Source: Amoebophrya sp. A120 (taxonomy: Eukaryota > Protista > Dinoflagellata). From it: DNA of 64,000 bases. Shown here piece by piece: positions 14,280 through 62,401 of the stretch; position 1 is the stretch's first letter, and each line of letters opens with the position of its first letter. Position numbers and translations under genes: made by a program. Location: positions 4,277,253-4,341,252 of the forward strand of contig CAJINV010000003.1 in NCBI GenBank assembly GCA_905178155.1, read 5' to 3'. Below the pieces are notes generated by a model. That model was not told the DNA's origin. It searched no databases and saw only the letters and a program-made list of their open reading frames with translations.

Positions 14280-15950
14280 TCGCCGGGTGCAATAAACATT
14301 TTGTATGCGCCTGAGGGTTTTGCGTACGCTGGACCTCCTTCATCAGCGAATTGGTTTGCGTCCTCTGCAGCCCATCAATCTTGTCGCTTGATTTTTCCAC
14401 TGAGCCCGTATCGTGGTCGCCGACGTCGCTCGCGTACTCCGATACAGCGCGCAAGTAGATGCACCAAAGCATCGTTTGCGCAGGCTAACCCTGATGGTGC
14501 ACAGGAGCACCCATGCAGCTCGCGGCGCAGATCATGCAGCTGGGGGCTAGACGAATTTCTCTGGCATATTACTCTTCTCTCGGATCGGAACTGAACCGCG
14601 TGAGATCGCGATGGTGCTTGTGAAGCAACGCCGCCTTTTGTTCCGCTGTCAGCAACGCCAACTCGATACCCTGTTTCTTGATCTCCGCCGCGACCTCGGC
14701 TTCATCCTTTTCGAGAATTTTCCGGTATATTGTCGTGGCGAACTCGCTAAAGTTGAACAACGAACCTGTGAATTTCGATAAAAAGCTTCGTGAAATATTT
14801 CTTCCGAGACCATATCACACAGAGTATCGAAAGAGCACCTGCGATAAGCTGCAGCAATGAAGAATTGAAATTTTTTCCGGTACTAGAAGAAATAAATTCT
14901 ACCTCGCTCATAACACCGCTCCCTCTGGTCGTTTAGCAACTTCCTGACAAAGTGAATCGGGACCGGCTTTCGCCACGTCTCCGAGGTGGTCAGCTTCTGC
15001 AAGCCGGCGATGCGCTTCGAGTCCGTTGGTAGCCGGTGCGACCACCAGAAACCGGCGCTGGTGAGCTCCAGCATGAGCCACTCGCTATGACAGTGCACAA
15101 CTCCCCCGCCCCTCATTTGTGTTGCATGAACAGCAACACAAGCAACAGCAGAAAAGGGGCTTTCGCATGACAAATCTGCATGCGGATTGTAGTACTATTT
15201 GAGGTTCCAAAATTTGTCATGCTAGCAGTGCTTACGAGCAAGGTGTGAGTTTGGTATTTTGCATGACAAATGAGGGGGAGGGGGAGTTGTGCACTGTCAT
15301 ACTCGCCGCAGTTCATCTTGAAGATGAGCCCGGCCGAAGTCTCGTCCTGCTTCTCAAAGTACTTTATCTGCTTCCACGAATCTTCGTCGGCGGAGTATTC
15401 TTGCCGCTGCCGCTCTCCGCGGGTGTAGAGGGCGGTGCTGTCGAAGGTCTTGTACTTCAACTATCCTGAGTAAAAACGTACCCACGCCAGAGCTGTAATG
15501 CAGATTTGCAAAGACAGGAAGACTTGTACATGCGCATCCCCATGAGAGCCATTTCCAATTGTGTTTTGGAATTTGTGTTGCTGTGAACAGGATGAGCAGA
15601 TGAATCTGCGATGCGGCTGCACGTGCTAACCTGCACTACACTGCATAGCGCAACTTGTCATGCGTGACTCACAAAACTCCTAGGTTTGTGTTGCAAAATC
15701 CCCATCCTGACTCTGGTGTGGGTACGTTTTTACTCAGGATATCAACTCCAACGTCATCAAGGTCTCCATAAACTCATCGTCATCCAAGATCTCGGCTCCG
15801 GGGACCCCCGGCATCACAAACCCGGGGGATGAGCTGCAACAGCCCATTTGTTTCCCTCGTCGCTTGCGTCCACAAGCAGCAGAAAGTCTCGAGGCGTTGG
15901 GCGTGGGTGCCTATTAACGAAGCGGATGAAAACGGCACGACTCGCAATGG
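14280..15950 (-). CDS. Hypothetical multi-exon protein interrupted by two TIR insertions; ends approximate
   Basis: Frames join across 15462-15741 (MTLEL|KYKTF) and 15086-15301 (NCGE|WLMLEL); further GT-AG intron ~14765-14901; exon joins near 14480-14570 not resolved. Confidence 0.5.
15086..15301. mobile_element. TIR insertion / non-canonical intron, family B (216 bp)
   Basis: TATGACAGTGCACAACTCCCCC...GGGGGAGTTGTGCACTGTCATA (22 bp perfect, ~35 bp imperfect); direct repeat CTCGC. Confidence 0.9.
15462..15741. mobile_element. TIR insertion / non-canonical intron, family C (280 bp)
   Basis: TATCCTGAGTAAAAACGTACCCAC.CCAGAG 31-bp TIR with one mismatch; direct repeat TCAAC. Confidence 0.9.
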
Positions 15951-21213: not shown

Positions 21214-22619
21214 GGATTAAACGGAACACGGAGGCTACTGATTCCGGGCGAACGCGCTAGGGTTGTCGGCTTTCGAGGAACGCCAAGCGATTTAACGTGC
21301 AGAAGCTGTGTTGATGAATGCCGCAGCGGCCTGCGACCGTTGCAGGTCTTGTTCCCCGCTACTGCAATCCCTGTGCCCGTGCAGTTCTTCTTCTTTCACT
21401 TTTTCTCCTAGCTTCGACAAAATTCGCTTGTTGAGGCAGCAAGTTGTTTAGTGAGCCTGGATGTGGAGCTGCAGGTCGGCTACAGTTCTTTCACGTTGGT
21501 ATGTCGTTCCCTTTGCTTGTAGTTCATCTGCAAATCAAACAATGTCCATGTCTTGCTCGTCGATCCGTGACGCAAGGCTCCTCCCGGTTTTCCGTCAGCA
21601 CTTTGCGAACTTGCGCGTCGTCCCGAAGTCCCGATGCCGTAAACTTGGGCGTACCTTCTTCCAAACGGCTTCAGAAGTGCTTGGATTGCTGAATGCGCGC
21701 TTCCAGGACCAGGAGAAAGGTCACTATAAGACACGTTTGATCACGCTTGGCTTTCCCCGCGTGCCTCGCCGACGTCGGAATGCCAAGGAGCTCCTGCCAC
21801 GTTGCCTTTTTGCTTTTTATTTCTGCTCTGCCATCCAATGTCAGCTTTGTTTTCGTTTTCGCCACCTAGTGCAGCAAGTGGTAAATGATGGAGCAGATCC
21901 CGAGGCTATGTAACAGCCTCCGCACGCTCCTGCACGGTTGGGTGGTGCTCGCACTCACGCTCGACTAGACCTAGAGCTTGTTGCACACGCAAATCAGCTG
22001 CCTGAGCGTGGGCATTGAGGCCGCCTCATAACACTTCGACTTCCTTAAAAACAGTCACAGTTTCGTCCTGACGCTGACCTATAGTGCGGTATAACTGAAG
22101 CTGAGAAAGATCATCAAATAAAAATTTTGAATTTCCATGCATGCGGCGGAAGAAAACAACGGAAGACGAAGAACAACACAAAAACTACTTACTTGAGCAG
22201 CTGCGATGGAACAACAAAATGTATTTCCGCACGAAGCGCCTCTCTCGACCACGCATTGTTCACTTCCTTGACAACTTTCTGACTGGCAGGCGTTCCGGGG
22301 CATTTTCGAACAACATTTACCAAGTCCCTCTGCGCAGGCAAGTACGGCAACGTGATGCGCCTGTATGTTATCTGAGCTGCGTGTACGCTAGTAACAAAAC
22401 GCATGTCAAGGGTCGAATCCATGGTGCTGCTGCTGGTGAAAAACGGCGAGCATCGAATGGGCCGGTCGGAAGCGGTAAGAGCGACGAACTGTTCAGCTCT
22501 AGGCGTAGTCTTTTTTCGTTGCGACACAGACAAAATAAAGCGAAAGATCCCAAACGCGACGCAGAACACTTTCAGGCCTTCGAGGAGGCTGACAAGAACG
22601 ACTCCCGCAGATCTGACCT

Positions 22620-24288
22620 CATTCGCAAGGTATGCTCCTTGTGGCCTCACTCCGAAGGCACTACTTTTGGTCCCCTGCGCACGGGAGCTTTTTTGGCCCC
22701 CAGTTCTGACCGCATCCGCAAGGTATGCTCGTTGTGAGCGCAGCGCCCAAGCAGTGCATTTGCTCCCCCGCCCCTCGCGCACGCAAGGGGGCTTTTTTCG
22801 CCACCAGATCTGAACACATCCGCAAGGTATGCTCGCTGTGAGCGCACCTCCGAGGCCGTGCTTTTGCTCCCCTGCGTGCGGGGGCTTTTTTGGCCCCCCG
22901 TTCTGACCGCATCCGCAAGGTATGCTCGTTGGTAGCGCACTACCAGGGCACTGCTTTTGCTCCCCTGCGCACGGGAGCTTTTTCGGCCCCCCGTTCTGAC
23001 CGCATCCGCAAGGTATGCTCGTTGTGAGCGCACCTCCAGGGACGTGCTTTTGCTCCCCTGCGCGCGGGACCTTTTTTGGCCCCCCGTTCTGACCGCATCC
23101 GCAAGGTATGCTCGTTGGTAGCGCACCTCCAAGGAGGTGCGTTTGCTCCCCTGCGCACAGGAGCTTTTTTGGCCCCCCGTTCTGACCGCATGGGCACGGT
23201 ATGCTCGTTGGTAGCGCACTGCGAGGGTTCTACCTTTGCTCCCCTGCGCGCGGGAGCTTTTTTGGCCCCCCGTTCTGACCGCATCCGCAAGGTATGCTCG
23301 TTGTGAGCGCACCTCCAAGAACGTGCTTCTGCTCCCCTGCGCACGGGAGCTTTTTTGGCCCCCCGTTCTGACCGCATCCGCAAGGAGTGCTCGTTGTGAG
23401 CGCACCTCCAAGGACTTGCTTTTGTTCCCGTGCGCACGGGAGCTTTTTTGGTGCCCCGGTCTGACCGCATCCGCAAGGTATGCTCGTTGTGAGCGCACCT
23501 CCAAGGACGTGCTTTTGCTCCCCTGCGCACGGGAGCTTTTTTGGACCCCAAATCTGACCGCAGCCGCAAGGTATGCTCGTTGGTAGCGCACTACTAGGGC
23601 ACTACTTTTGCTCCCCTGCGCACGGGAGCTCTTTTGGCCCCCCGTTTTGAGCGCATCCGCAAGGTATGCTTGTTGGGAGCGCACCTCCAAGGACGCGCTT
23701 TTGCTCCCCTGCGCGCGGAAGCTTTTTTGGCCCCCAAATCTGACCGCATCCGCAAGCTATGCTCGTTGGTAGCGCACTACTAGGGCACTACTTTTGCTCC
23801 CCTGCGCACGGGAGCTTTTTTGGCCCCCCGTTTTGACCGCATCCGCAAGGTATGCTCGTTGGGAGCGCACCTCCAAGGACGCGCTTTTGCTCCCCTGCGC
23901 ACGGGAGCTTTTTTGGCCCCCAAATCTGACCGCATCCGCAGGGTATGCTCGTTGGTAGCGCACTACTAGGGCACTACTTTTGCTCCCCTGCGCACGGAAT
24001 CTTTTTTGGCCCCCCGTTTTGAACGCATCCGCAAGGTATGCTCGTTGTGAGCGCACCTCGAAGGACGTGCTTTTGCTCCCCTGCGCGCGGGAGCTTTTTT
24101 GGGCCCCCGTTCTGACCGCATCCGCAAGGTATGCTCGTTGTGAGCGCACCTCCAAGGACGTGCTTTTGCTCCCCTGCGCACGGGAGCTTTTTTGGCCCCC
24201 CGTTCCGACCGCATCCGCAAGGTGTGCTCGTTGTGAGCGCACCTCCAAGGACGCGCTTTTGCTCCCCTGCGCACGGGAGTTTTTTTGA
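22620..24288. repeat. Tandem array, 93-bp unit, about 18 copies
   Basis: ATCCGCAAGG recurs at 22911, 23004, 23097 and onward; unit CCGCATCCGCAAGGTATGCTCGTTGTGAGCGCACCTCCAAGGACGTGCTTTTGCTCCCCTGCGCACGGGAGCTTTTTTGGCCCCCCGTTCTGA. Confidence 0.95.
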
Positions 24289-25088
24289 GCCAGCGCCGTG
24301 CGTCCTCGTCAAGAGCAGCATGATAGTGCCTCCAAAATCTCTTCAGAGGTCGGCCTATCGTAACCGCTTTTGCGGCTCGAAAGAAACGCATAGAACGCGT
24401 TGCGTTAGTCACCTCGCTCTGAGTTGTGAAATTCCAAACTTTTATTTTTATCGCGCAGCAAAATCCGCGAATTTTCAAAGTTTTATTTTTATCTGCTGCT
24501 TTTCTGATGGTCCTTGACACAAATGGGATAGCGCAAAGGTGGACCATGATATGTTATGTAGTTAGTGGGCCAAAAGGTACCACACACCATGTCCCGCGGC
24601 GATCTTCCTCCTAGGCGGCCAAAAACAGAACAGGAATTCCACTCACAAGACCGCCCGGCTTAGCGCCCCAGTTTTTGGATTTGGGCCACATATCTACTGA
24701 TTGTGATTTCGACAACCCTAACCCAGTTTCCGCTAGTGGTAGGCACGCTCGGAAAAGGGTATTTCCTTGTTATGGCTAGCATCTCTCTGTCTCTGCGGTG
24801 AGTTCATCGACTTTCAGCCAGGAAGCAAGACGACCAAAGACAACACAGAGACGACATCGACGCAACGACCTAAATAAAAGCGCACTTTCTGTGTCAAGGA
24901 GACGAACATACATGTTGTCGCGAAAAGGAAAACCTATCGACAAATGACTTCCGTCTGGGTGACAACTACATCGCGTCGCTTTTCTTTCGCATAGATAGTA
25001 CTTAGGTTTGCTTTTTAGTTCGTTGTCGCTTGTTGTGCTTCTCGATGCCGCTTGTTACAAAGAGATCCACTCGATCAAACAATCAATG

Positions 25089-26574: not shown

Positions 26575-27670
26575 TTTGCGCAAAAAATGATAGTAGTCTA
26601 AATGTTGATGTTCAGAATAAATTGACTCTTCTCCAATTAGGGGTGAAATAGCAAAACCTTGAACAAAACTTCTTCCTATGTCGCTGATACGATCAAGGAT
26701 GATAATTGGCCTTTCTGCAAGCATGGCGCAGTTGGAGTCTATTTACTGCAGAAGACCTCGAAAAAATCCTTGAGGTGGGGCGGATCGGAGAAGGAGAAAA
26801 AGAAAAAAGACCTCATACGTCTGCAACACATACACGTTCACGTTGTGATCCGAATGCATTACCCGAATAGATCAACTGAAATTCTGAAATTCTTTACTTG
26901 TGGTCAGTCCGACAATGTCGAGGAACGCAAAAGTAGTCTTGTACAGATGGAACGTGATGCCGTAACCTGTGCTGTTTCCGGCTCGATCTTTTGTACAGAT
27001 AAATTTTCTTGAAGGCCTCCGTCGACAAATCAATATGTACAGGCGTTTTGTGGATACGTCAAATACAAGATTTCTCAAACGCAACATAGATACAATCAAA
27101 GAAAGTTAACGCAAACCGCAAGCGCAATCCGTATGAAATAACGAGAAGCGAATTTGTTACAGCCTCCGTTTTCTCGCTGTGGCGATTATGACTATCGCAC
27201 AAAGGTAATCCATGACATAAACTAACATGACATAAACGTATAGAGAACAAAAGCGATGGTGTAATCTAGATCAATACTTTAATGGCTAACTCAAGTGTGA
27301 ATAAATTAGGTGCGACTAAACACTTCGATACCGTTACTTACGAAAGCGCAAACCCGCCATTCTTGCGTTTGCGACTTCGAAACCGAAAGTGGTTCATTGG
27401 GAATAGAAAATACAAAAAGGTTCATCAAACGAGCAGCTCTACGCGACCGCGCGCATTCTTTGATCTTCAAAGTGAGGCACCACGACGCAGTATCGCAACA
27501 ATACGACCGTGGAGAATTAGCAAGCACTAGAATCTGGAAAGCACATGAAGACGTAGGTTTCTGTTAGTACACAGAAGATCAGCTTTCTACGTGAATAGAA
27601 ATTCTTTATCTAGCGTCATCTTTCTACTCACGTTCTTTGTCACGTAAAAACAGTTTTCATCCACCGTCCA

Positions 27671-29475
27671 CTAGTGCGGCTCAATCATGTTGCCACGCTT
27701 CATGGAGCCGCAGCTCGGATCGCGGCTGAACCACATGTGCATCTGCCAGCGCGCCGATTCCAGCTGCTCGGTGCCGTAGTGACTCGGGCACCCCGCGGCT
27801 CTCATGGTGGAAACGTTGTGCTTTTTGAGGTTCCCCGGGTTGTAGCTCAAACCGGACTCGTGACTGAGGCCCGCCGTGTACTTGCACCACGTCATCGGCT
27901 CGGTGTACGACAATGGCATAATTTCTCGCTCCATCGCACAGAGGCTCGCGTACCTGTCGTGTTGGATCGTTTATTGTTTTTGCTTCGTCCTTTTTGCAGC
28001 TTTTTGTGCATTAGGGGCGTCATCTAGTCACGAGGAAATCGCCACGTTCAACTGCATGCACCACAATGTGAAACAACAAAACAAAGACTCACAGCGACAA
28101 CTTGATCTTCTACATACGAGATGATCCAAATGTAAGAAGTATACTTGTTCTCTTCCGGGGTGTATTGGTCTTGCAGATCTACCCTAAGGTCGGATCCAGG
28201 ATTTAATCTTGTCCATGAAAGCGAATACTTCGGGTCCCGATGAAACCACTGCGCCGTACCGTATGGGTTGTACTGTTTATTTTTTTCGTGAAAATCAATT
28301 TTGATTTTTACACGTTCGCAAGAAGATTTAAACCACAAAACTCAACATATACTTTCATACTTCTCTCAATTCCTGAGCCCGCGCGTTGGCGTCTCCGAGT
28401 TTCTTGCCGATGACAGTTTCCGAGTACACAGCTGGTTGATTCGTGCTGGTACCAGGCACTCTTTGTATTTGCTTCATCGACTTTTTCTTCTGCAGGGCTT
28501 TCGGATTGTCAATGGCGCGCTCGAGCTTCGAAGGACCGCATTTACCTGTTTTTGTTTTATACTAGAAGGACGATCATTTTCTATCCATCTTATGGTCGAA
28601 AAACAATCTTTTGCGCACCATGTCAAGAGTTCGCATCAAGATCAATTGTTCAACACAAAAACCGCATGAGATCGAAAAAGTAATCCTAATTCAAATAATT
28701 TCTGTACCGAGCCTCTGGTAGGCAATTTCTATTCCCTGGTGCCACCTTGTCGAGAATTGGTTGCATGGCCCCTTCTTCGGGATATACCCGAGGTACTTAC
28801 TCACATTTGTGACATACTTCGGCTGGTCAACCCTTGGCATGTGGCCAATTTTTCGGGCTGGAATCTTGTGTAGTCTGCCGAGCTGAAAATGAAATGCATT
28901 CATATGCCATCAGATGAAAACCGATCAATTTTCAAGCCTGTACCTGCCACGCTGAACTTTCTTCAAAAATAAAACTAGAACCACTCAAAGCAACGCACAT
29001 CTCAACGCAGGCAGGTACCTGTATGTCATCAATGCCGGTGTGCTCGTGCCCTGGCTTGTCGCAGTACTTTCGAAATGCCGCATGGTTATCAAATGTAAAA
29101 ATGTCTGGGTCTGGAAGAATCCGAACTTGTGGTGCTGCATTTGGATTCTAAAAAAATCTGTATTGCATGACCAAAAAAGGAAATGCAATTTTGGCTACGC
29201 GGAGAGGGAATTTGTCATGCGGAATACGCATCAAGAAGCCCTCAAAAGATCCGTATTGCTAGAGTATGCATCACAGACATCATGGCTCATGCAAAACGTG
29301 CATGACAAGTGTCACAATCTTCCAGACCCAGACATTTTTACATTTGATAATGGTGAGTTTTTGACAACCGGTCCTGGGGTCCGAAATAAATCGGCGTGGG
29401 GCCCGTGTCTTGCACCGGAATGCGCAAATTTCGGCCCTCATCGTTGTATCCGCGGACTTCGTCCGCACCCGACAT
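27671..29475 (-). CDS. Hypothetical multi-exon protein (possibly flagellar; YLGYIP motif)
   Basis: MSGADEVRGY...SKTHH|AAFRKYCDKP is in frame after removing 29087-29349; later exons flanked by GT-AG (28883-28707, ~28545, 27954-27671). Confidence 0.6.
29087..29349. mobile_element. TIR insertion / non-canonical intron, family A (263 bp), reverse orientation relative to the other A copies
   Basis: Perfect 32-bp TIR TATCAAATGTAAAAATGTCTGGGTCTGGAAGA; direct repeat ATGGT. Confidence 0.95.
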
Positions 29476-30516
29476 TGTAGTTCTACGAGATCTTCAATTC
29501 AAAACTAGTCTACAAAAAAAAGTATCTTTCCCGCAAACAAAAAAAGTACCCGGTTCTGTCTGAAACAACGATGAGTGTCCTTCGTAGCGAGCGTTTGCGG
29601 CAGCCCAGGAAAACTTTGAACTTCACAACGAAGGTAAGTTGTAGAAAGTTAAACACGATTCCAACAAAATCAAAAACCAAACAGATTGACGAAGGCCCAA
29701 CGAATCCGTATGCATGTCCACGTCTGTGATTGATTCCTGCTTTAGACTAGGTTATTTTCAAACGAGACAAAATGAAATTGCAAACAGTTATTTTCATTAC
29801 GAAGATTTAACGATGTTGTAAATAACAATGAGGAGCAGTAGAAACACAAAAATAGGAGAAGACCGACGGGACTAAGATTTGTGACGAGTTGACGATATGC
29901 GATCATACTGGCACGAGTTTCGACGTCCGAACGGGAAAGAGTAGGGAAACATCAGCTATCAAATTACTGAATACACGACAACAAAGTAGAACCTGTCTTC
30001 CCATACCCACACCCGAGACTGTAGATGTACCTAATGCTTTCCCAGACTTTCCTTTATCCTTTGTTCCGTCCCGACAATTCCTTCGACGCGAAATTACACG
30101 TCTGAGAGATGAACAAACAAGAGGCAACCTGGCGGGCATTGTTGACCCACAGTTCTATAGCACGTAGCCCGGCACAAGCCAAGAAGCTGGACCTGAATGT
30201 ACTTAAGTTCCGACTCCAGATGTTGAGCGAGAGTGGGCGCAAGACCATTGTACACATGTATACTGCGTTCTAGATGCAGCAGGGCCGTCTTGAACGGATG
30301 CAACGTGACTTCAACAGCATCCCTTAGGCTTAGTAGCTATTCTTCAGCGATGTTGTAGACGTGTCAATGCTAAAACTCTTGTTCAAGCGCATGCACAGCG
30401 AGGAAATAGCGCTTTATTCATCGTACAGTTCCACGAAATAAAAAATCATGGTTCTTGGTGAGCTATCATCCTGGCTCCAGCTTCGTGTCACATTTATTCG
30501 CTTCGCCACTACTACT

Positions 30517-31724
30517 TCAGACTGCATTTTCATCCCTCAATCGGTAGTAGTACACCGGGCTGCCCGAATCCTTTTCCCGATCGCTGGTGGGATCGATCTT
30601 GCTCCAGGAAAACGGTAGGTTCTCCTTGCGCTCCTCCACCAATTTCGACGAACAGGCGGTGACGCCCTCGATCCCGTGCATGGAAACAAACATGCGCAGC
30701 TTTTTCGGCAGGGCGGCGCACACCTGTCCGAGCTGCTCGCGGGAGAAGGAGAAGTTGTATACGAGCGTGGCATCGTCCATTTTCGCTTTGGTAAAGTCCT
30801 TCTTCCGGAAATCGATCTTGCGCACGTTGTCGGGCGATCCGGTGAGCGACCGAATCTGCTCCGGGGACAGTTTCCCGCACTGCTCCGGGAGGGACTCCTG
30901 CGTCTTCCGAAACAGAGAGGAGAACCCCTTCGTATCCTTTTTGTTGATCTGGTTCACCTCCTGCACCTTCGTCAGCGAGTTTCTCAACAGAAACAGCTTC
31001 GCGTTCTGCGCGGCGTCGTACCGCGTCGGCTCGAATTCGATCCCGATGGCCCGCTTCACCGGCGTCGTCAGCGCGGTCTGCACGACGGCTTTACCGAGCC
31101 CGCTTCCGAGGTCGTAGAAAACGTCATTGGCCGTCACGTCCATGCGCCAGAGGATCTGCGCCAACGAGTCGGAAAGCACTTCCCCGTACAACGGGCTGCC
31201 CCCCACTGCCTTCAGCGCCGCCTGCTCCTTCTCCGGCACGTAAAATCCCGAGGGCAGACTCCCGTAAACAGTGTTCACCAGGTCGCCTGCGCAGGCGCTC
31301 AACTGCCGAAAGCCTTGCTCAGCCTTCGCGATCACATCAGCACGACGCTGCAGGGGCACCATGTTGCGTCGCACAAACGAGGCGCCCCGCACATCTTGTA
31401 TGAATTGCAAAAATGTCTGGGTCTGGAAGAGTGCAGGAGTTTGCCATGCATATTTTGCATGCCCCGTGAGGTCTGTGATGCATGCCCTGGCATCAGAGAT
31501 TTTGCGAGGGCTTTCTGATGCTCATACCGCATGAGAAATGCCCTCTCCGCGTAGCACAAACTACGCGTCTTTTGCTGTTCATGCAATACAGATTTTATGT
31601 AGAGTCCAAAGGTAGCATCACAAGTTGCATCCTTCCAGACCCAGACACTTTTGCATTTGATATCTTGATGAAGGAAGCAAACCTGGTGCAGCAGGAGAAC
31701 CAGAAACCGCGGCACACCGTACAT
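30517..31724 (-). CDS. DOT1-like class I SAM-dependent methyltransferase, paralog 1
   Basis: LYGEVLSDS, DVFYDLGSGLGKAVVQTAL, AIGIEFEPTRY; the N-terminus MYGVPRFLVLLLHQVCFLHQD joins VRGASF after removing 31399-31662. Confidence 0.8.
31399..31662. mobile_element. TIR insertion / non-canonical intron, family A (264 bp)
   Basis: TATGAATTGCAAAAATGTCTGGGTCTGGAAG...CTTCCAGACCCAGACACTTTTGCATTTGATA; direct repeat TCTTG. Confidence 0.95.
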
Positions 31725-32548
31725 GGCAGTAGTTTTGCACTAACGTATTTCTCAGTGTCGTGGTAGTCGTGTGAGCAGGATTTAATGCTAGTACTGCTGC
31801 AGCTTCGGCTGTATGCAAAAAAACCGTAGCTACAAGATTCAAAAATTTGTTATGTTGAAAGCAGAAATCGCGAAGAAGCACACTTCTTACGCCAGGTTGG
31901 TGGAATCGGTCCGTGAAATCGTTATCGTATTTTGCTTACTAGTGCCTCTCAACTTGTATGGTGCACCTCTTCTCCGTGTTCTCGATCTTGGGCCGCGTCA
32001 TGAGGTCGCTCAAATGAATCCAGGTAGATGCAGCGCCGGTATGGATCATCACCATCGTTTGAGATCTTTTCCCACCCTACCGCAGGCGGATGGAGTAACA
32101 CATCTTCGGTGAGATTGATACACCTCACGTCATAGCGCCATTCTCGTAGGAGCTGCAAGTTGTCACTGTCTCCTGCTACCTTCTTCTCATGCGTCATCTT
32201 GGGAGAGCCATCTACTACATTGCGAAACGTATGTCCTGCTCTGATTCAGCTTTACTTCATCTTGGTTTCATCTTTTTATCCTTATACATTCAGCCAAAAA
32301 ACGCAAGAAACTGTATCTGGTTGCTTTCCTGGTTCATTCTTTTCTTTTGGAAACGTCTGTCTGAGTCATCGCCAAGCTACTAGTCGTCTTGAACAACGAG
32401 AATTGCGCCCGAATCCGGTCACCGTTACATGATCATGGAGTTTCTGATGTTTGGCTGTGAGGACGCCGCGAGCCCGGCGCCGCTGCACTATGAGAATCGC
32501 CTTTGCGTTCGCTTCTCCTCCGGCTTTGCACCCAGTTCTTCTACTCGT

Positions 32549-33340
32549 TCACGCATGCGGCTGGTAGAAGTAGATCGAACTTCCACCGGATTTTCGGCTC
32601 CACGACATGGGTAACTGCATGACGTGCGCTTTCCAGAACTTTCGGGTACAATTTTCCACGTCCCCGAGATCCTTGAGAACCACAAACATGCGCACCTTTT
32701 TTTGTGGAAGCAAATCGCAGATCTTTCCCAGCAATTCCGTAGAGAAACAGGTTGCGCATGAGTAGGCGATGGTGGCATCGTCGAGGGTCGCCTTCGCGAA
32801 GTCCTTCTGCTCAAACTCGATCACCCTATCGGCCGCCGCCGGCGTTCCCAGCACTGCCTTGCGTGCTTGGAGCGCCGTTTTGTGTCTTGTCGCTTCGAAT
32901 TCGATACCGACTGCTTTCTTCACGGGTGTGGTGAGCGCGGTTTGAAGCACCGTCTTCCCGATTCCCGACCCGAGATCGTAGAAGACATCGTCTCTCGTGG
33001 GCTTCACGTACTCCAGAACTTTCGCCAACGACTCCGGTAGAATTTCCCCGTAAATCGGCGAACCCCCTACCGCCTCCAGTGCCTTTTGCTCTTGTGCCGG
33101 GATGTTAAATCCCGGATTCAAGTCCTCGTACGTCTTGGTCAACAACGTTGATGCTTCATCCGTGTCGAAAACGCCCCCGGGGGCTCTTTTTGCGGCCTCG
33201 GTCTTCAACTTGCTCTTACCTTGGCCCAGCATCAACTTGTGCCGCAAAACGTTTGCGCATTCGACGACACAAAAATGCGGGGTGAGCAGCACTGCCAAGC
33301 CGGCGAAACGCCAGGCAGCAGAACTATACGCGACAAGCAT
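32549..33340 (-). CDS. DOT1-like class I SAM-dependent methyltransferase, paralog 2
   Basis: IYGEILPES, DVFYDLGSGIGKTVLQTAL, AVGIEFEATRH, DATIAYSCATCF; hydrophobic N-terminus. Confidence 0.85.
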   Translation of the reverse strand: MLVAYSSAAWRFAGLAVLLTPHFCVVECANVLRHKLMLGQGKSKLKTEAAKRAPGGVFDTDEASTLLTKTYEDLNPGFNIPAQEQKALEAVGGSPIYGEILPESLAKVLEYVKPTRDDVFYDLGSGIGKTVLQTALTTPVKKAVGIEFEATRHKTALQARKAVLGTPAAADRVIEFEQKDFAKATLDDATIAYSCATCFSTELLGKICDLLPQKKVRMFVVLKDLGDVENCTRKFWKAHVMQLPMSWSRKSGGSSIYFYQPHA

Positions 33341-33691
33341 ATTTTCACACTACCATGCTCCGGCGTTAGCGGTGCTGTTCAGGGTGGGATGATTTAAGTA
33401 GAAGGTGAAAAAGAAAAGCTACAGTGCAGTCCGTCATGTGAAAACCTCCTATCGAAACCATGTCGCGCACACTCTTCACCAACTCTCAGAATTCTTCCCT
33501 TCCAAGAAACATGCTTCCATAAACGTAGCCTCACATCAACATACATAGGACACTCTGACTCTAGGGGTTTCTGCTCGTTGTTCCACCTTTTGGACAATCT
33601 GGTCCCTGTGACGGCGCGCCAACACGCTATGGCTAATATCCCATTCCCATATAGGCCGCTTAAGCACATAGCAAGAGACAGCCTGTGCATT

Positions 33692-36600
33692 TCAGTTGTA
33701 GCCGTAGCTGCCGATAGATCTTGATCCTGGTAGGTACGCGTTTGCTTTGTTGAGTAGTAGACTAAAAGAATTTCTGAATGCGAACCGAGTCTGGGACTGC
33801 AGCCCAAGGGAAAATTGTAACCGCGACTGTTCATCACACACTGTCGAAGACTTCCCAGAACTCGTCAGACTCCTGCTTTTCCACTTCCACCCCGGCGATC
33901 CGAACCTGACTGCGCACGAGCTCCTGGCTCTGCAAGAAGTCTTCTGCAAACTTCCCCGAGTTTGCCTTTGCCTTGTCATCTGGATGAGCTAAGGCGCCGA
34001 CCCACAGGAAGATCGTCGGCTCCCCGTCCGAATCGGGTGCAAAGAACAATTGCACGAATTCGCTGTCGAGGTCGTCCGGATCGGGCATGCTCATCGGATC
34101 GTCCCAATTTGGGCACCTGGAATGGGACGTTGCTTCACGTAAGTACTAGTACAGGAGGTTTTGCACTGTTGCTTGTACATCTAGATTGATCCTAGTCCTG
34201 GTCCTGCTACTTTTACACGCAAACAGAAAAAACAGGTACGTGAAAAGCTGCGGTTTGATTTTCAATTTTGTCTTCGATGACGTAACAACTTCGGTGTTCA
34301 ACGGGGGCGTCCTTGGCGAGGTCATCGGTGTCCGCGGCGTCTCATTTTTGGCTCCAAACGTCTTGACCAGCAGCTCGTAGTCGTCATCGTTACTCCGTAT
34401 TGATTGCACCTGCAAATTTCTTGGTCACCGATTCACCGGAAGTAGATGTTGTTCACGTAGTTGTCAAAGTAAAAGAACTCGTCCTGATTCACATTTGAAT
34501 CTTTTCGCCCTACAAGTTCCAGAAAAAATACGAAACAGGACCCGAAATTCCAATACCTGCCCTGAGCCTTTGTTTTCGCTCCGCAGAATGCCCCAAAAGG
34601 CCTCGGACGGGTTCGGGTCTCGGCAGTAATCGATGACGGGTCTTTCGTTGGGTGGCAGCCACCGCCTTCGGCAGTCGCTGACCTGCAACAGGAGTTTCTC
34701 GGCTTCCTGCTCCGGAACCACGGACTCGGGCCCACGCCACACCAAGAACTTGTTCCGCTTGCTGTCAAAGCACGCGTAATCGAAGCGCGGGTCGATCCAC
34801 AACGAGGGCACATTGCGGTATTCGACCGCGAACAGAACCAGAAACGGGTCCCGGTCGTGGTGACACCTGATCTTGCAAAGCTTCGGATCGGCTACTACCT
34901 GTATAAATTTAAGTAACGTTGGAGATCGTCCTCGGGACTTAGAGGTTTTCTATTCTTTTTTGTACTCGTGTGGATTTGCTTGAACGGCGAGGACCTGCAT
35001 CAGCATCGACTCTGTGACTTATGGGGGTCATACATTGCAAAATTAGTACCGCTTCCCCAGGTTTTTCTGAGTTGGGGTTCGGAATCCCCAGTTCCTTCTG
35101 CCAGAGCAGAAGCTGGACGTAGAAGCCGGTATTGGGGCGGCAAATGGGGCGCGTTTGCTGAATGCGCGAGAGGACCTCCCCGACGGGCTTCTTGGTCAGG
35201 TGCATCAGGTACACCAAACACAGAGTGCAACTTCGGCTCACACCTTGGCCGCAGTGGAACAAGATGCGCGGCTTTTTCCGGGTCGTTTCCGCTATCCTGT
35301 GCAAAAGTATCGTACTCGTATGGCAATCATGCATCAATTTTTTTCTTAAGGAAAATCCGCATTACAAATTTTATCTCTCATGCTGACGAAATTTGTAGTG
35401 CATTTATACGAATACGCTACTTTTGCAGTTCATATCCGCGGCCTGCACGCAAAACTCCAGCAGCTTGAAGAATCCACTGGAGATATCCTCCGCGCGGCCG
35501 TCCTTGAAGTAAAAGGTGAGGTACTCGAAGTGCCGCGACGGGGCTTTCTGAGCTGTAGTAAGAGCAGGATAGAAGTCTTTCTATTCCTACCACATTTTTC
35601 AGTTCCACCGAAAGCAACTACACTTGAAGTCGAAATGCTTGCGGATTCAAAAAAAAAAACGAAATCTATGTTTGTATTCAAGAAGTACGCGAGTCGTCGT
35701 CCGAGTCCTCCAAGTTGTCAGTTACTTCGGCGGCGGCGTTGACGATGTGTGTGATCCCCTGATTCAGAAGCTGTGTCTTGTTTCTCGCGACATCCGAGGC
35801 CCCGATATAAACGAAGCTTCCTTTCAACCGCGCCAGCGATGGATCGTCGAGGTCGCAGGGTATCTCGCTCAACTCCGGCCGGTATTTTTCGAGCATTTTT
35901 TGGTTCTCGGCCTCCGCGCCGTACTGCAGCTGCTGTTGTTGGCTCTGTTGCACCACCCGCGGGGTCGGCGGCGTCACGCCCTCCCCCTCGCCGGTGGCCG
36001 CCACCTGCTCGCCGCGTCTTCGTTTCAGCACGCCGGGCGCCCGCTCGGGGGACGCAGCGTCCTCCGCGAGGACCTGGACGTTGGGCGACTTCATCACGAT
36101 TTGGGTGGAGTGCTCCACGATCTGCTCGTCCTGTTCGCGTGGACTCACCCGCGACATCACTGCCTGCTTCACCAAGTTCTGACGGTAGCGGTCCGCGGGG
36201 GAAACCAGCTTCTTCGTCGGGTCCGACGGCGTTTGACCTATAGCAGGTTTGGGAGGGGAAGGGGATGAGATGATATCACAACCACAAGCATGCAAACGAC
36301 TATATGTAGATTGGAATCGCAAGTAAGTGTACTTATGCGGCCCCATGGTGGATAGCTGGTGTACGCATGGTTAAAGCAAAGATTTTCAAAAGCTTGCATA
36401 CCAGCAGCGCCTTTTCCGCGTGCAGAGCGGGGCGTAGCGGTCTGCGGCCGTCCTCTCGCAGAATCTTGTTGATTTGCCCGGCCTGCAGCAGCAGCGGGTG
36501 GTGGCTTGACCGCCCCTGCATGGAACGATTGCGCCCGCGGAGTGGTGAACACACCGAGCCCTGGCTGCAGTGGCAGGCGAGGAGTGGCCAGCGGGGTCGC

Positions 36601-37329
36601 TTGCAGCACTGCGCTCATAGGGAAGGACTGCGGTCTCGGCATGGGAATGCTGAAGCGACCGCCCAGACCGAGCACTGGGGGCCGTCCCACGCTTTTGTCT
36701 GGACTTGTCGCCCCGCCCGACGTCCCCAACAATGGTATCTGTGTCACCTGCGTCGCGCCAGTAAATTTTGGCAGTGCCTGCGGTCGCGAAAACGGTCCGT
36801 CGAGACCCGAGGGCTTGGCCGTCGAGGCGGCCGGCCTTGCGACGTTGGTTTGCTTCGCGCTTGTGGGCAGCAGCGCAGGCACGCAGAGTTCTCCATAACT
36901 ACCCGGAAGCGACAAACGGGGAGTCTGCTGCAACACGCGCCTCGCGGGCGAAAAAATCGCCGAAGACCCGGTCGAGCCGCCACTCTGGAAATTCATGACG
37001 CGCGGCACTGGTGCGGTAGTACCGGCTGCCGGCTTTGCTGGGTAGTTCCTGGTCGTGCTACTGCTCGAAGGTGCCTTCTGCTGCATTTGGGAACTTCTGT
37101 TTCCCATGATCGTAGTGGCATCGTCGTAGTTACTTGCATCCTGTGACCGCCCGGGACGACCCGAGTTCGCTGTTGCCCAGGAGCTTGCGGCGGCTGCGGC
37201 ACGGTTCCAGGTGTCTGCCGAAGTCCCGTCGCGAAATGAAGTTGCTCTGGGCAGAAGAGAACCGAGTTCAAATCGCGGCGTTGTGACGTAGCCGAAATTA
37301 TCTGTGGATAAACGAGAATTCTTCATCAA
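33692..37329 (-). CDS. Dual-specificity (MKP-like) protein phosphatase, multi-exon; 3' end approximate
   Basis: FVYIGA, GITHIVNAA, catalytic loop ILFHCGQGVSRS, RPICRPNTGFYVQL; join EFCVQA|AETTRK across 35293-35434. Confidence 0.8.
35293..35434. mobile_element. TIR insertion / non-canonical intron, family D (142 bp)
   Basis: TATCCTGTGCAAAAGTATCGTA...TACGCTACTTTTGCAGTTCATA; direct repeat TCCGC; similar along its length to 1759-1903. Confidence 0.92.
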
Positions 37330-37392
37330 CGATCACCCGCACAACGGGTTGGTGCTGCCACAAGTGTTTTATTTTTGTTCAGTGTGGTATTG

Positions 37393-40300
37393 TCATCTAC
37401 ATTGGAGGTGCAGGTGGTTCAGGTGAAAGAAAAAAGAAAAACTAGAATTACAACAAAAAATTGTACTTCTGCCACTCTGCTGAACATCGTTCATGACGGA
37501 GAACGCAGTCTCAAGACGCGTTGGAACCGCAGAGGGCCCGGCATCTACGGGGACCGCCACATCTAGAACAAGATTCCGCCGCAGCGGACCAATTGATCTC
37601 TGGTGCGCCAGTTTCCGGTGCAGAACGTTCACTTGCCGCAGCGCCTTGTGGAAGACTTCATTCTTCACGCGATCGCCCTTAACTCGGAAAAAAGTGACCA
37701 TGACATCGCTACGAATCTGCCGGCCGGAGTCTGGCGGCGGCGAGGTTCCCCGGGGGCTTTGCAAAACCTTCTCCATGTTTTGCACCTTGGGCACCAACAC
37801 GTGTACGGGAAAACCCGCCCCCTCCGGGGTCTTGAAGGGTGCGTCGCCAACCCCCGATATCGGCTTTCTCGTCGGAGCTTGCACTGCGCGCGGCGACGTG
37901 GGTGCCGTGAAATTCCACAAATCGCGGCAAATCGGCGACACGTCAAAACCGGGTGGGAGCTCAATACGCGTCACCACGGAGCTCTCCATGTACGACCGCA
38001 CTTTTCCGAACACTACCTAGAGACGATGTATAGAGACGAAATAGGTGATCTTCAGCACTGTTCTTATCCCTAAAGAAATTCGCAGCATACCGTCGGGATT
38101 TGCCCTTTTTCTTGCGCCAACGCAGGCGCTGCAGCTTTTATGGTCGCGCCTGCGTAGGAGTGGTGTTGCCTCCCCTGGTGGGTTTTTGCACGCGGCCCAG
38201 GCGTCGCTCTAGAGAAACCAACAGGCTGGCACGCTAGCACCCCGGCGAGCCTAGACATAGACTAAAGAGGCCCCCCCACTGCGCAGATCGACGCGCCCCG
38301 CGGGCACTCACAACACACCCATCCGGCGCAGGCGGGCATCTTTTCCGCGGCCCCGAGCCCGACGTACTCGCGACCCAAAAAAGGCCGCAAGCCGGCTCGT
38401 GCGGACTTGGTGCGCAGGCCCCTCGAGTCCTCTTGGAACTCTTCAAGCGCGCCCCCATCTCTCACCCGCCGCCCCAATCACTCACCGTTGGCACCGGACC
38501 GCTTTCGCGGCCGTGGTGGACGCACTGGCAGAAGACCCAAAAAGCTTCCCGCCTGGTATTCGTTTAAACGCTCCAAAAAGATAGATAAGAACACCTACTG
38601 CAACGACCTGGCATTTGGCATTGATGTTTTGGCACGAAGCAGAGTTGGAGCTTCTGCGCCAGATGTTCCCGGTCTCGTTTTCTGCTGTTCTTATCCTCCA
38701 CGCCATGCATAGATAAGAGCATGTTTGTAACGACCTGAAGCTGGTGTTTGGCACGAAGCAGAATTGAAGCTTCTGCGCCAAATGTTCCCGCTCTCGAAAA
38801 ATGCTGTTCTTATCCTCCATTTGGTGCATAGATAAGAACATGTTTGTAACGACCTGAAAATGGTGTTCTTATCTATGCACGGAGAGGAGGGATAAGAACA
38901 GCATTTTATAGAGAACGGGAACATCTGGAGGAGAAGCTTCAATTCTGATTCGTCCAATCACCCTACTGCAGGTTGGAAGCTGGAGAGCGACACGACTGTG
39001 GTGGTCAACGAGAAACTCCGAGGAGGCTACTACGTCCAACTCTGATTCATCCCAAAACACAGCAACAGGTCGCTGCAGTAGTGTTCTTATCTATGCACGA
39101 GCGGGAACGTGCGGAGCTGAAGCACCATCTTTGCTTCTAGTCCCTCCCATATGCGTATTATTTTATAGAGCCAGCGCCCCATCGGTCCTAATTTAGGACC
39201 GACGGCACGGCGCAGGCAACAAAGACAACACCGGAGGGGCCATCATCTGCTATGGAGCTCTCCATGTACGACCGCACTTTTCCGAACACTACCTAGTAGA
39301 GACGATGAAAGTGGCACCAGATTGATTCGACACACTGAACATTTTGTGTGAGATTAGGCTGGGGCTACACATTGACATACAGTAGACATCATATCATTCT
39401 CTTCACGTCGTCCCTTTCTATAACTTTCATGTACATTTTTGTGATGAACGTTTCCAAGCCACAATCGCATACCTCCATGATCACGTAGCATTCGTCTCGG
39501 CGAAGGTCTTCAGGATTGAATTCGAACTGCTGCTTCGCGTCGAGTATCAGATGTAAAAATGTCTGGGTCTGGAAGAATGCAAGATTTGTGATGCAGGTTT
39601 TCCATGACCCATGAGGTCTGGAATGCGAGACCCAGCATGACAGATTCTTGGAGGTCTCTATCATGCCTTTCCTGCATGAGAAACTCCCTCTCAACTTGGT
39701 CAAACGCGGACAGCTTTTGGCACTCACGCAACACAGATTTTTGCATCATTTAGATTTAGCATGACAAGTTCTAATCTTCCAGATCCAGACATTTTTGCAA
39801 TCCATATCGAGGCACGAAACCCCTGCAGCGGCCGGCTGCTCGCCGTCCCGCCACCGCCACATCCGATACGCGGCGCACTCCTGCCATGACGTTGTGGAGT
39901 TGCCGGGGTTGTCGATGCTGCGTGCAAACTCCTCGAAGGACTGAGGGTCCTTCTCGAACGCGCACGCGTTCCCCATGGTGCGGGAAAGTAGAGGACCACC
40001 AGCAGTCGATTAGTACACCAGCACGGTTCAGACTCCGCAGATGTTGCAGATCACCTTTTTACTGCCTTCATAGTTTGGCTGGGTCCTCACATCCGTATCG
40101 CATTCTTTTGTCTCTAGGGCAGATACTCGTTTTTACTTGGCGGAAATGCTTGTGCTTCACAAAATGTTGACCGTGCAGCTGCCCGCACGGATCCTTTTCT
40201 TGAAGATCATGCATGATACGAGCGATAGCAGTATCGTGTCAGGAAGGACATCTTTCGAGTTGGACGTGACTGTAGTATGCAAGGCGGGCGATAGAAGGAC

Positions 40301-40400
40301 ATTTACATTTCAGATCCTCTCCTCAGAGCAACCGACGGAAGCATTATACAACGGTCGTGGAGCTTTTGACATCATCCACGACGTACATTGAGATTGACAT
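37393..40400 (-). CDS. Hypothetical multi-exon protein with a kinase-like fragment; structure uncertain
   Basis: GVSCL|DAKQQF is in frame after removing 39545-39806; CYVIMEVCDCGL resembles kinase subdomain V; the start of the terminal exon is duplicated. Confidence 0.4.
37978..39296. repeat. Identical 43-bp direct repeats (37978-38020 and 39254-39296)
   Basis: GGAGCTCTCCATGTACGACCGCACTTTTCCGAACACTACCTAG occurs twice, each followed by (TAG)AGACGATG. Confidence 0.9.
38580..39098. repeat. Fold-back repeat built from ~120-bp units bounded by GATAAGAACA/TGTTCTTATC
   Basis: Direct units at ~38581, 38709, 38828; reverse-complement units from ~38865 to 39098. Confidence 0.8.
39545..39806. mobile_element. 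TIR insertion / non-canonical intron, family A (262 bp)
   Basis: TATCAGATGTAAAAATGTCTGGGTCTGGAAG...CTTCCAGATCCAGACATTTTTGCAATCCATA; direct repeat TCGAG. Confidence 0.93.
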
Positions 40401-40869
40401 TTTTGCACCGTTCGCATTAAGTTCTTCACGCCTGAGCGCAACGGAGAGAGCGCCAAAATGGAGCGGAGTTGCGGTCATGATGAGATGCGTACCGCAAGTA
40501 CTACACGCTCGAACACAAAAACTTTTTAGTCCACTGGGAGCGGTGTGGAAATCCATCGTGTCATATTCGCCAAGCGTGTGGATACAGTTGTACGGACTTT
40601 TGCGATGATGTAGTACACCAGCAATCATACAAGTAAAATTTCTTTTTCGCGCACAGCGTATGTACAGAAAGCTTTCATGCGCGATTGCATTTATTTCCGT
40701 TTGCGTACTGCTTTCATCTGCGTATAACAACTATTCTAAATCTACTCAACTCCTTGCACTCTACCTGAGAGCGTTTTTCATTTTCGAGCGATGTAAACAT
40801 TTGTAAACTTGAAAGTGGACAGGTTCATTTTACAGTCGATATCTCGGACAAGAATCCTCCGCTGGAAGC

Positions 40870-42103
40870 CTAACCGCCTTCCGCTGAGGGAGCCGGCACC
40901 TCTGCTGGGGCAGGCGGGGCTGCTGCTTGATCTGTGAAAAATTTAGTGGAAAAGGTTCACACTCCGTTCTGGCACTTACTTCCATCTTAGTAGCAAACTG
41001 CGTGTGCGTCTGTCATGCGTACATATCCGTTTATTCCTTTTCGTACGCATACCCATACGCAAGCAACAAGCAAAAAGAAAAGAGAATACCTTTTGGCATG
41101 TCTTCCAACGCAAATCGATTCTTCCAGGCCCCTTTGCAGTAGAGCCACCAGCTTTGCGTTCCTAAACCCTTGAACGCCGCCATGTGGTAAGCCTGAACAT
41201 TGGAAATGACAATGAGCAATTCGAGCATGCACACATAGTACATCGTTCGGAATTGTGAGCCTGAAGCATTATTTTTAAAAAAAGACCGTATTCTGTAAAG
41301 AAAAGCAAAGCCGTTATGAAGAACAAAGCTTATATCTGTACGGTGCATCCGTGCTTGTCGGTGACATTCGCGTCGCATCCCTTTTCTATTAGTGTCTTTG
41401 CTATCTGCCATCGCTGCGCTTCGACGGCCCGAAACCTGAATTGGGTTGTAAGATCTTAGTCCGGAAACTACCCAAGGTAAGCACTAGTACATCAGGGAAA
41501 CAAGTTTTTCACGAAGAGCTTCTATGCTTTCACTTTCAAGATGCTAGTACAGCGGAAAAGTATTTTTCAGTACAGTGGTGTTCTTCCTTCGTCGTCCTGC
41601 TTTATTTCTGCCTTCTTGTCCAGCAGCAAGTTTACCAAATCTTGATACCCGTAGAACCTGAAGGGAGAAATCAAAACTTCACTTTTGCTTATCAATGCCA
41701 ACTGTGCACCATTTGCCCGTTGCAAGAACCGCCCTCGAACTTTGACGGCGAAACGTCAACGAAAAGAACTACTACGTGAAGTAGATGCATCACAAAAAAT
41801 TGTGGTCAACAACTGGTTGAGAAAGTGCTACTAAGGTTGGTACGATGCATCGTGGAGCGGCGTCCTCCCCAGGTAGTCCGTGCAGTTCATGCTGACGTTT
41901 TTGTCGAGCAAGAACTTCGCTACTGGTTCCCGGTTCATGGATATTGCCTCGTGGAACGCCGTTCGGTAGTAGGGTTTCTCGCTGAAGTCCAGGTCACCTT
42001 GTCTTCTCAACAGTTCGGACGTGAAAAATTTCACCCCGTTCTCCCCATCCATGATGCCCTTGTGTGCCGCCTGGCACAGCTTTCGGTTCTCTTCCTGTGC
42101 CAT
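40870..42103 (-). CDS. Small ankyrin-repeat protein, multi-exon; 3' end approximate
   Basis: RTAFHEAI, GRTPLHDAS|FYGYQDLVNLLLDKKAE, EGRTPL. Confidence 0.7.
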
Positions 42104-43562
42104 CTTGTGTCAAGTAGATGTCGCCTTTGCTAGTCGTACTCGTGCTCCACCAGAGCGAAGGAGGACACAATTCCAATTCTGAAAACAGCTCTTGTCGTTT
42201 GTTTTTCAGAAGGTTTCGGTCTAGTGCAGACTCACGTTTGCCGTCCTGCGGGATTGGACTTTTCACGTTAGCTGGGACAGTTGGCCAAGAGATGTACCAC
42301 TGGGAAGGCAGTCGACAACAGGTTCTCCTTTGCTCCCCTTGCGTCACTCCAATCCGGGCTGCCGCGTGGTATGCTGCCCCCAAAGGAGAGACCAGCTCCA
42401 GAACTTCAACAGAATTTTTAACAGCGCTGTCTGCGGTCCGCTACGCCTTCTTACGTACTTACTTGCCAGAAGATAGCCAAACGTACACGTAGTCAGTGCA
42501 GCTATCACTGTGAGGCGGTAAAGAAAAAAATCTCCTAGAGGTGTCGACCTACGAAAGAAGAATGAATCGCTCCGCTCGAAAACGAAAACAGATATCGAAC
42601 AAGGGTCAGCTCGATGGATCAGAGTCTAACAAACATTGATGGAGTGGTCCTGCAAGATTTCAATAGATTTAAATTTACCTGCATGGTAAATGATTTTCGG
42701 AGTGGTTACCGCGTCCAATAGTAATTCAGCGGTGATCGTACGTGGTAAGTGCTCTCGTGCTAGCCGAACGATGGTTTCATCTGCCTCAATAGGAGAGGAA
42801 CAAGAACGAGTTGTAACGAGTACGATTAATAATAATAATAATAAGATTCCTTAAAAGGCGCTAGCCAATCGACAGAGCCGATTATGGCAGCGAATGTCTG
42901 GAAATCTCTGTTGTTCTCTTTCACTTGGACTGGTGATGTCACATCAGAGAGTTTGGAACGATTACTATGCAGCTAATATGCACCGATCTGCGATTGCGAT
43001 GTTCTACTTCGGCTTAATGAAGTTACAGGAGTTCGATTGCTGAATTAAGTGAAATTCCTCTCTGCACAATCGCAAGCGCTTTTTCGCGACGAGCGTAGAA
43101 GTAGAACAGCAAGGCGAATAGCAGTGCGCAAACTTTCGCTTTTTCATTTTTTTCTTTTCTGGGTTGCAGTTGGAAATTCTCTAGTTGCGTACTCTGTCTT
43201 GAAATCTGGTTATTGTTGCGGGGGTTCAAGTTGTAAAACCTTGGTTAGCTGCTGCCATTGGGATACCATCCCGTTCAGACGAACTTAAAGTCAACAATAG
43301 AATTCAAGTCTGCGCTCACAAATAGTACCAGCCGTCAGAGACCGTCAAACGAGTTGAAAAAATTTTTGGTAACAATTGCGATGCATATATCCGTAAGTTT
43401 TCGTATTTCGATTCCATGATGGTGTAGCTCTAGCTCGTTCAAAATCAGGTTGTTGATGCAAAGAAATTCCGTTCTCAAGTTTTTTCTTCGAAAGTGTTGA
43501 TGTTGATGCAGCTCCATGATAGTACCGACTTCCACTATATTCATTCGCTCTCCTCGTTACCC

Positions 43563-62195: not shown

Positions 62196-62401
62196 TATCA
62201 AAGAAAAAAAGTTCGTCACGATCACTCATGCGCATTCTTGCAATACAAAATTGTTTGTCATGCGTAAAAATGCATCACAGCCAAACCTCATTAGGGATTT
62301 CCCTAGTGTTTCTGCAATACAAGGAAAGTTTGTGATGCTGAGAAAATTTGTAATGCATAACCTGCAAATTAGTGATTGTGACAAACTTTTTTCTCTCCAT
62401 A
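62196..62401. mobile_element. TIR insertion, family E (206 bp), in UTR or intergenic DNA
   Basis: TATCAAAGAAAAAAAGTTCGTCACGATCACT...AGTGATTGTGACAAACTTTTTTCTCTCCATA; direct repeat ATTAT. Confidence 0.85.

Follow-up and report, generated by a model that had tools for sequence, protein, structure and literature searches.

Introduction

In the dinoflagellate Amoebophrya sp. A120, the text of Farhat et al. (2021, PMC7789003) describes introners with a mean length of about 240 nt, non-canonical ends and 3–5-nt direct repeats, in which an inverted repeat starts with TAT and continues with seven variable bases and then AAA or an A-run. According to the same text, 15% of the A120 canonical introns carry these repeats, nearly all spliceosomal proteins are present, U1 snRNA was undetected and no cognate autonomous transposase was found; a hairpin was proposed to bring the exons together, and the removal mechanism was given as unknown. 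Integrase-like families flanked by terminal inverted repeats (TIRs) are described in A120 by Gozashti (2025). We analyzed a 64,000-nt stretch of A120 contig CAJINV010000003.1 (the window, meaning the whole stretch) that holds four copies of one such introner, here called family A, inside minus-strand genes, one copy being inverted relative to the other three.

In Polarella glacialis and Aureococcus anophagefferens, introner-like transposons with TIRs and target site duplications (TSDs) are described as creating introns in either orientation, and in the class with 5-nt TSDs the donor can be built from the last G of the duplication (bioRxiv 10.1101/2020.10.14.339549). As presented in that preprint, the splice sites are GT/GC/GA-AG, borne by the element or drawn from a constrained duplication, and an orientation bias is noted, whereas the duplications studied here show no such constraint, and the 49 core copies scored in a relative of A120 revealed no bias. 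The nonconventional introns of euglenids, in the accounts of PMC6221363 and PMC11282704, share with our elements non-canonical ends, terminal pairing, TSD-like repeats and a proposed origin from miniature inverted-repeat transposable elements (MITEs), but differ in having a Y|R junction consensus, heterogeneous sequences and circular excision products. The non-canonical introns of Fritillaria borealis likewise have TIRs and TSDs and derive from MITEs; the title of the paper credits their removal to an evolved U2 spliceosome, and they prefer the ends AG-AC and AG-AT, whereas we found no preferred ends (PMC11282704).

The window elements are introners of A120 in the sense of Farhat et al., because two of the host proteins match A120-labelled entries. 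The element class is already in print; what is added here is a quantified orientation property that sharpens the question of mechanism. The text of Farhat et al. gives no table of element orientation against host strand, and our literature search returned no passage saying outright that A120 introners are neutral in orientation, although figures or supplements may hold one. As described, the introner pipeline of PMC12130899 demanded matches in the same orientation and that of PMC9860276 permitted opposite ones.

Family A copies in both orientations within minus-strand genes

Four family A elements of 262–264 nt are present in the window, each listed without a strand of its own:

29087–29349, no strand: family A introner copy, inverted relative to the others, 263 nt, perfect TIRs of 33 nt, duplication ATGGT at 29082–29086 and 29350–29354
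31399–31662, no strand: family A introner copy, 264 nt, duplication TCTTG
39545–39806, no strand: family A introner copy, 262 nt, duplication TCGAG
57892–58155, no strand: family A introner copy, 264 nt, duplication CGAGC

All four have TIRs of about 35 nt (TAT...ATA) that follow the scheme of TAT, seven nucleotides and AAA, and an exact 5-nt duplication flanks every copy, within the published range of 3–5 nt. They are elements of the same kind as the A120 introners, with repeats of about 35 nt against the 8–20 nt given in the text of Farhat et al. Their TIRs, fixed-length TSD, shortness, multiple copies and lack of a transposase gene are traits of MITEs, that is, of non-autonomous TIR transposons. 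The family is highly repeated, with 130 copies in 138 loci of a close relative and a summed DNA-contig depth above 100,000 against about 45, a figure that is not a copy number.

The sequence-only reading had compared two 29-mers, which lie at 29194–29222 and 31527–31555 of the plus strand and are indeed mutual reverse complements with 2 mismatches. Interiors were then aligned after cutting 35 nt off each element end, with z scores taken against shuffles. As a reverse complement, the 29087 interior matched those of 31399, 39545 and 57892 with z = 19.4, 15.4 and 12.2, compared to only 4.3, 4.2 and 6.2 in the forward direction, while the other three interiors aligned forward with one another (z = 9.5–17.1). 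The trimmed alignments agree with the orientations first proposed, copies 39545 and 57892 lying like 31399 and 29087 opposite to them, and the gap in z rules out the inversion of 29087 as a chance call. Element 29087 is predicted to fold with a long terminal stem (z = −10.0), as does 31399, the second window element examined (z = −9.0).

The host genes are as follows:

27674–29509, minus: host gene of 29087, with exons 29509–29355, 29086–29019, 28882–28708, 28545–28361, 28272–28145 and 27953 onward
30520–31724, minus: host gene of 31399, encoding a DOT1-like methyltransferase domain; the position of the start codon is approximate
35681–40252, minus: host transcript of 39545, with GT-AG introns 36238–36401, 37302–37466 and 38017–39472
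56538–59494, minus: host gene of 57892, with an annotated product of 896 aa

The minus-strand assignment of all four hosts was borne out by GT-AG introns, long open reading frames (ORFs), the Pfam DOT1 match of the 31399 host and the annotated proteins of the 29087 and 57892 hosts. The 29087 host has four GT-AG introns and a 319-aa product, and a Pfam search with three of its exon pieces gave no match. Searches with exon translations returned two proteins whose source labels them Amoebophrya sp. A120, P0001 and P0003, and both are identical to the window exons at the positions checked. P0001 crosses the 29087 junction and P0003 the 57892 junction, each with one split codon, which is annotation and not independent proof of splicing; a further protein, P0002, starts downstream of the 29087 junction and is uninformative about it.

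As had been claimed, removal of the element and one duplication (268, 269, 267 and 269 nt, in the order listed) restores the reading frame in 4 of 4 hosts. Two cases need care: only about 24 codons lie upstream of 31399, where independent frame calls of the two flanks disagreed, and the length removed at 39545 is a multiple of 3, so that removal there clears stop codons instead of correcting a frameshift. At no slide position on the host strand did any of the four copies offer GT-AG or GC-AG ends, which rules out canonical splicing by sliding within the duplication. The canonical donors examined in the window were GTAY in 7 of 7 cases.

RNA-like and DNA-like contigs at the window copies

Contigs or reads of four of the 11 listed sequencing runs were aligned to positions 27500–41000. 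Two unlabelled runs from one sample, X1 and X4, were treated as RNA on the basis of their behaviour: they skip GT-AG introns as well as the elements, and their depth is zero at 29755–30205. Removal of copy 31399 from the RNA-like contigs is seen directly: at depth 156, X1 record 2 runs straight from 31392 to 31662, nothing being inserted at the joint, and X1 showed no depth of this copy's own interior letters at the positions listed. For 39545 the evidence is arithmetic, since the 70 nt that X1 record 4 leaves between 39807 and 38013 equal the exon stretch 39470–39539, so the element has been removed.

The removal of 29087 from RNA-like contigs is indicated indirectly, the junction itself not being displayed. 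Depths predicted from the exons agreed with those observed in X4 in two bins (12.09 and 20.31 predicted; 12.1 and 20.3 observed), while X1 fitted in one bin (7.37 predicted, 7.34 observed) and exceeded the prediction in the other (4.39 predicted, 5.36 observed). In X4 record 5, 154 nt remain after the exon next to 29087, and the first exon up to the TTTTTTTTGTAG acceptor measures 155 nt. At seven positions within 29087, letters belonging to this copy itself had zero depth in X4, so the leftover 154 nt are not the element. Removal of 57892 is known from annotation only.

In contrast, the unlabelled, DNA-like run X6 covers introns and spacers evenly, at a depth of 41–53 outside repeats. Its contigs, at depth 41–45, enter 29087, 31399 and 39545 from either side by about 25–29 nt, and these three sites are therefore occupied in bulk DNA. 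No empty-site joint was found among the 15 X6 joints listed (there are 336 further joints); X6 is possibly the assembly's own source, and contigs lose rare variants. The element-containing X6 contigs led us to reject excision from the bulk of the DNA.

The raw-read run X9 gave 217 matching reads, all partial and covering element ends only, and hence yielded no junctions. At 39722–39809, X9 reads match one end of an element and then run on into foreign sequence, which suggests that another strain has an abundant transcript in which a related element is retained.

Orientation and frame in a close relative

A pattern scan of one public assembly provided 138 loci, a partial sample of about 330 stretches, from a relative that is close to but not identical with A120 (95–97% protein identity at locus L070). 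We recovered 130 distinct family A copies, 99 of them core copies and 31 with a divergent interior; 112 had exact 5-nt duplications, 8 had duplications with one mismatch and 2 were cut off by the end of the locus. The evidence for these copies is of frame and homologue type, not RNA. Coding strand and frame were called with a model trained on 19 window ORFs, which in leave-one-out trials on 120-nt pieces called the frame correctly in 143 of 177 and the strand in 152 of 177. Of the 126 copies whose flanks were usable, 69 received a host-strand call, among them 49 of the 99 core copies.

Both orientations were common in called coding hosts. Core copies were oriented like 29087 in 22 cases and like 31399 in 27 (p = 0.57), and those with divergent interiors in 6 and 14 cases, respectively (p = 0.12). 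The tabulation of orientation against host strand that the sequence-only reading had proposed shows, in the relative's sample, that the 29087-like class is not rare. Five further multi-copy TAT families also occurred in both orientations among called hosts (8:2, 6:3, 4:4, 4:1 and 2:1), and 220 of 229 matches to a hairpin plus 5-nt repeat, not deduplicated, started with TAT.

The reading frame was assessed in 49 of the 64 copies with both flanks coding, namely where the flanks score on one strand. After precise removal, independently called frames of the two flanks agreed in 42 of 49 copies (permutation mean 20.3, maximum 32 in 10,000), with 15/18 and 14/17 in the two core classes, and keeping the element would break the frame in all 42. 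Frames were still concordant in 5 of the 8 copies with a one-base mismatch in the duplication, a sequence pattern that would fit a ruler better than a mechanism based on homology. At L070 a 29087-like copy interrupts an ABCG transporter gene. Of the 9 homologues tested, 6 span this site with exactly one residue separating the flanks, as does the A120 orthologue.

Two observations stand apart from these results. Among 54 concordant copies, the first base of the duplication occupied codon position three in 29 and the other two positions in 13 and 12, possibly reflecting a G/C target preference. Longer TAT-ended units of 457–972 nt with 5-nt duplications (L033:1595–2225, L048:1501–2472, L016:1814–2270 and L032:571–1051) are possibly nested or internally expanded, and are candidate remnants of an autonomous partner.

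Duplications and terminal arms

The duplications are nearly unconstrained, with 97 distinct sequences among 116, and since they are unconstrained at least one cut ignores the flanking letters. Apart from the window copies, none of which has canonical U2-type GT/GC-AG ends, a GT-AG register was possible in 4 of 61 copies and the other 57 had no GT/GC-AG register. When the 69 called copies were stratified by element direction, the arm at the 5' end of the transcript deviated from the consensus less often than the 3' arm did (p = 0.0015; p = 0.0009 and 0.036 at other thresholds; p = 0.018 in a sign version). The variant arm was the 3' one in 13 of 22 cases, compared to 5 of 27 in which it was the 5' one (p = 0.007). 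These results indicate that the transcript-5' arm is modestly better conserved.

Probable recognition by the element ends

The interior cannot carry the recognition signal. The sequence-only reading, which did not identify the elements as a published class, had argued from the two orientations that recognition must use the symmetric ends, and part of this stands: recognition must sit in the ends, and coding sequence tolerates the element either way round. Strand-free recognition does not follow, and to deny any role to strand-specific donor, branch and acceptor signals goes too far. Signals with a direction would be just as compatible if they lay within the repeats, because the inverted repeats give the RNA the same approximately 35 nt at its start and end either way. 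We further infer that a 5-nt duplication cannot be cut symmetrically about the stem, since the offsets k and 5−k are never equal. Orientation neutrality thereby narrows the removal signal to the terminal 35 nt or so, a small and testable substrate for the removal mechanism.

Removal very probably takes place at the RNA level and is guided by the ends. Within this, a spliceosome relaxed in its demands and guided by the hairpin, reading the terminal repeats of about 35 nt, has in our judgement an evenly balanced claim to being correct. A shared transposase would insert the non-autonomous element through a 5-nt staggered cut, regardless of host strand. As read from the sequence, the transcribed element begins TATCAAATG... 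and ends ...CATTTGATA whichever way the interior runs, and the arms are predicted to pair into a stem of about 35 bp. The element and one duplication would then be lost from the RNA, as seen directly for 31399, indirectly for 29087 and 39545 and in annotation for 57892. In this scheme the terminal TAT may take the place of positions +2 to +4 of a GTAY donor, leaving the +1 base free, and the 3' cut may be placed by distance from the base of the stem with no need for AG. We favour this reading because all 7 local donors are GTAY, TAT matches +2 to +4 and the 5' arm seems to matter more, and because the set of spliceosomal proteins is nearly complete in the account of Farhat et al. (2021, PMC7789003).

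Several results weigh against the relaxed spliceosome. A would-be +1 G was present in 19 of 61 copies (coding background 0.305) and a would-be acceptor AG in 5 of 61 (background 0.068), neither in excess, and a spliceosome unconstrained at either end would be an extreme case. The polarity of the arms was found post hoc, as one of several statistics tried, and is weaker at the strictest threshold; copy 39545 is a counter-example, being apparently removed although its variant arm is the 5' one. A test for selection on pairing was null (45 G.U-compatible arm differences against 56 A.C/C.A), and the arms of core copies agreed above expectation at only 1 of 6 variable positions. A transposase would explain the invariant TAT equally well. 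The contigs showed neither a lariat nor a branch point nor the exact register of the cuts, and at read level 29087 and 57892 yielded no junction.

Some of the same results could point instead to RNA removal guided by structure and measured from the base of the stem, performed outside the spliceosome by an endonuclease and a ligase or by a second splicing machine, a possibility that we hold tentatively as the main rival. The nearly free duplications, the absence of G or AG enrichment and the strong terminal stems are in its favour, as are U1 being undetected in A120 as reported in the text of PMC7789003 and the euglenid introns with inverted repeats and duplications, which according to PMC11282704 leave as circles and not as lariats. 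Opposed to it are the lack of a wobble excess and of general covariation between the arms, the frequent mismatches at terminal positions 4–7 and the agreement of TAT with the local GTAY donor. In its strong form, also somewhat doubtful, A120 would possess a second, non-spliceosomal mRNA splicing activity that reads the terminal hairpin, ignores junction letters and direction and measures one 5-nt duplication; insertions of many TAT-ended families would then be harmless at almost any coding position. If removal is non-spliceosomal, or spliceosomal but free of GT and AG, it would be a new kind of mRNA splicing, and the system would be a scarless, direction-free removable insert.

The remaining alternatives carry less weight. 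An ordinary spliceosome could use interior branch signals present on both strands of a partly palindromic interior, and the weak self-similarity of the interiors (forward z of 4–6 for 29087) and the few copies that permit a GT-AG reading lean that way; this is unlikely given the 57 of 61 copies without any GT/GC-AG register and given that families with unrelated interiors behave alike. A hairpin with a short direct repeat is also the signature of a reverse transcriptase (RT) template-switch artefact. The junctions could thus be RT switches across the hairpin, the element staying in the mRNA (with, for example, ribosome hopping between matched repeat codons) or the allele being dead. An RT artefact with apparent non-canonical joins is the subject of PMC2923612, and all RNA support here consists of cDNA-derived contigs. 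We consider this very unlikely in view of the joined 31399 contig at depth 156 without interior letters at the positions listed in X1, the frame broken by retention in 42 of 42 copies and the concordant frames of 5 of the 8 copies with mismatched duplications.

Programmed excision from DNA before transcription, also suggested by the sequence-only reading, would resemble the internal eliminated sequences (IESs) of ciliates. These are lost at the DNA level and need a somatic genome; they have TA at their ends, their precise loss restores frames, and those of the Paramecium type keep one TA. The likeness is formal, through TA-bounded ends and the loss of one direct repeat, as with IESs and pointer repeats. 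Here, however, both TA ends are lost instead of one being kept, and to our knowledge no split between germline and soma is known in the Amoebophrya lineage. Ciliate IESs are lost from DNA, whereas DNA-like contigs keep our elements: X6 contigs enter them at the depth of the flanks with three sites occupied, although rare excision may escape, and RNA-like contigs lose the elements along with ordinary introns. Together with the lack of an empty-site joint among those listed, this makes DNA excision highly improbable.

Other features of the window

Further TAT-ended elements are present, again listed without a strand:

1759–1903, no strand: TAT-ended introner of a family of about 150 nt, duplication CCGCG
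15086–15301, no strand: TAT-ended introner of a family of about 220 nt, duplication CTCGC
15462–15741, no strand: TAT-ended introner of a family of about 280 nt, duplication TCAAC
35293–35434, no strand: TAT-ended introner of the same family as 1759–1903, duplication TCCGC
62196–62401, no strand: TAT-ended introner-like element without called coding context, duplication ATTAT

A scan of the window against Rfam gave 0 matches. At 29510–29521 on the minus strand, a T-rich AG acceptor coincides with the calculated start of the X4 contig and is likely a spliced-leader trans-splice site. The gene at 30520–31724 adjoins 32552–33349, making two neighbouring DOT1-like methyltransferase genes (Pfam PF08123); judged by eye, both seem to start with a hydrophobic, signal-peptide-like stretch, which is unusual for a histone methyltransferase family. 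The GT-AG intron 38017–39472 contains another repeated sequence, with internal direct and inverted repeats and a summed DNA-contig depth of 670–830 against about 45. Low-complexity coding regions rich in R/S/D/E form a duplicated pair at 43434–44401 and 45894–46828, about 2.4 kb apart, and at 22604–24383 a 93-nt unit (31 codons) is repeated head to tail about 18 times, with long open frames on the minus strand.

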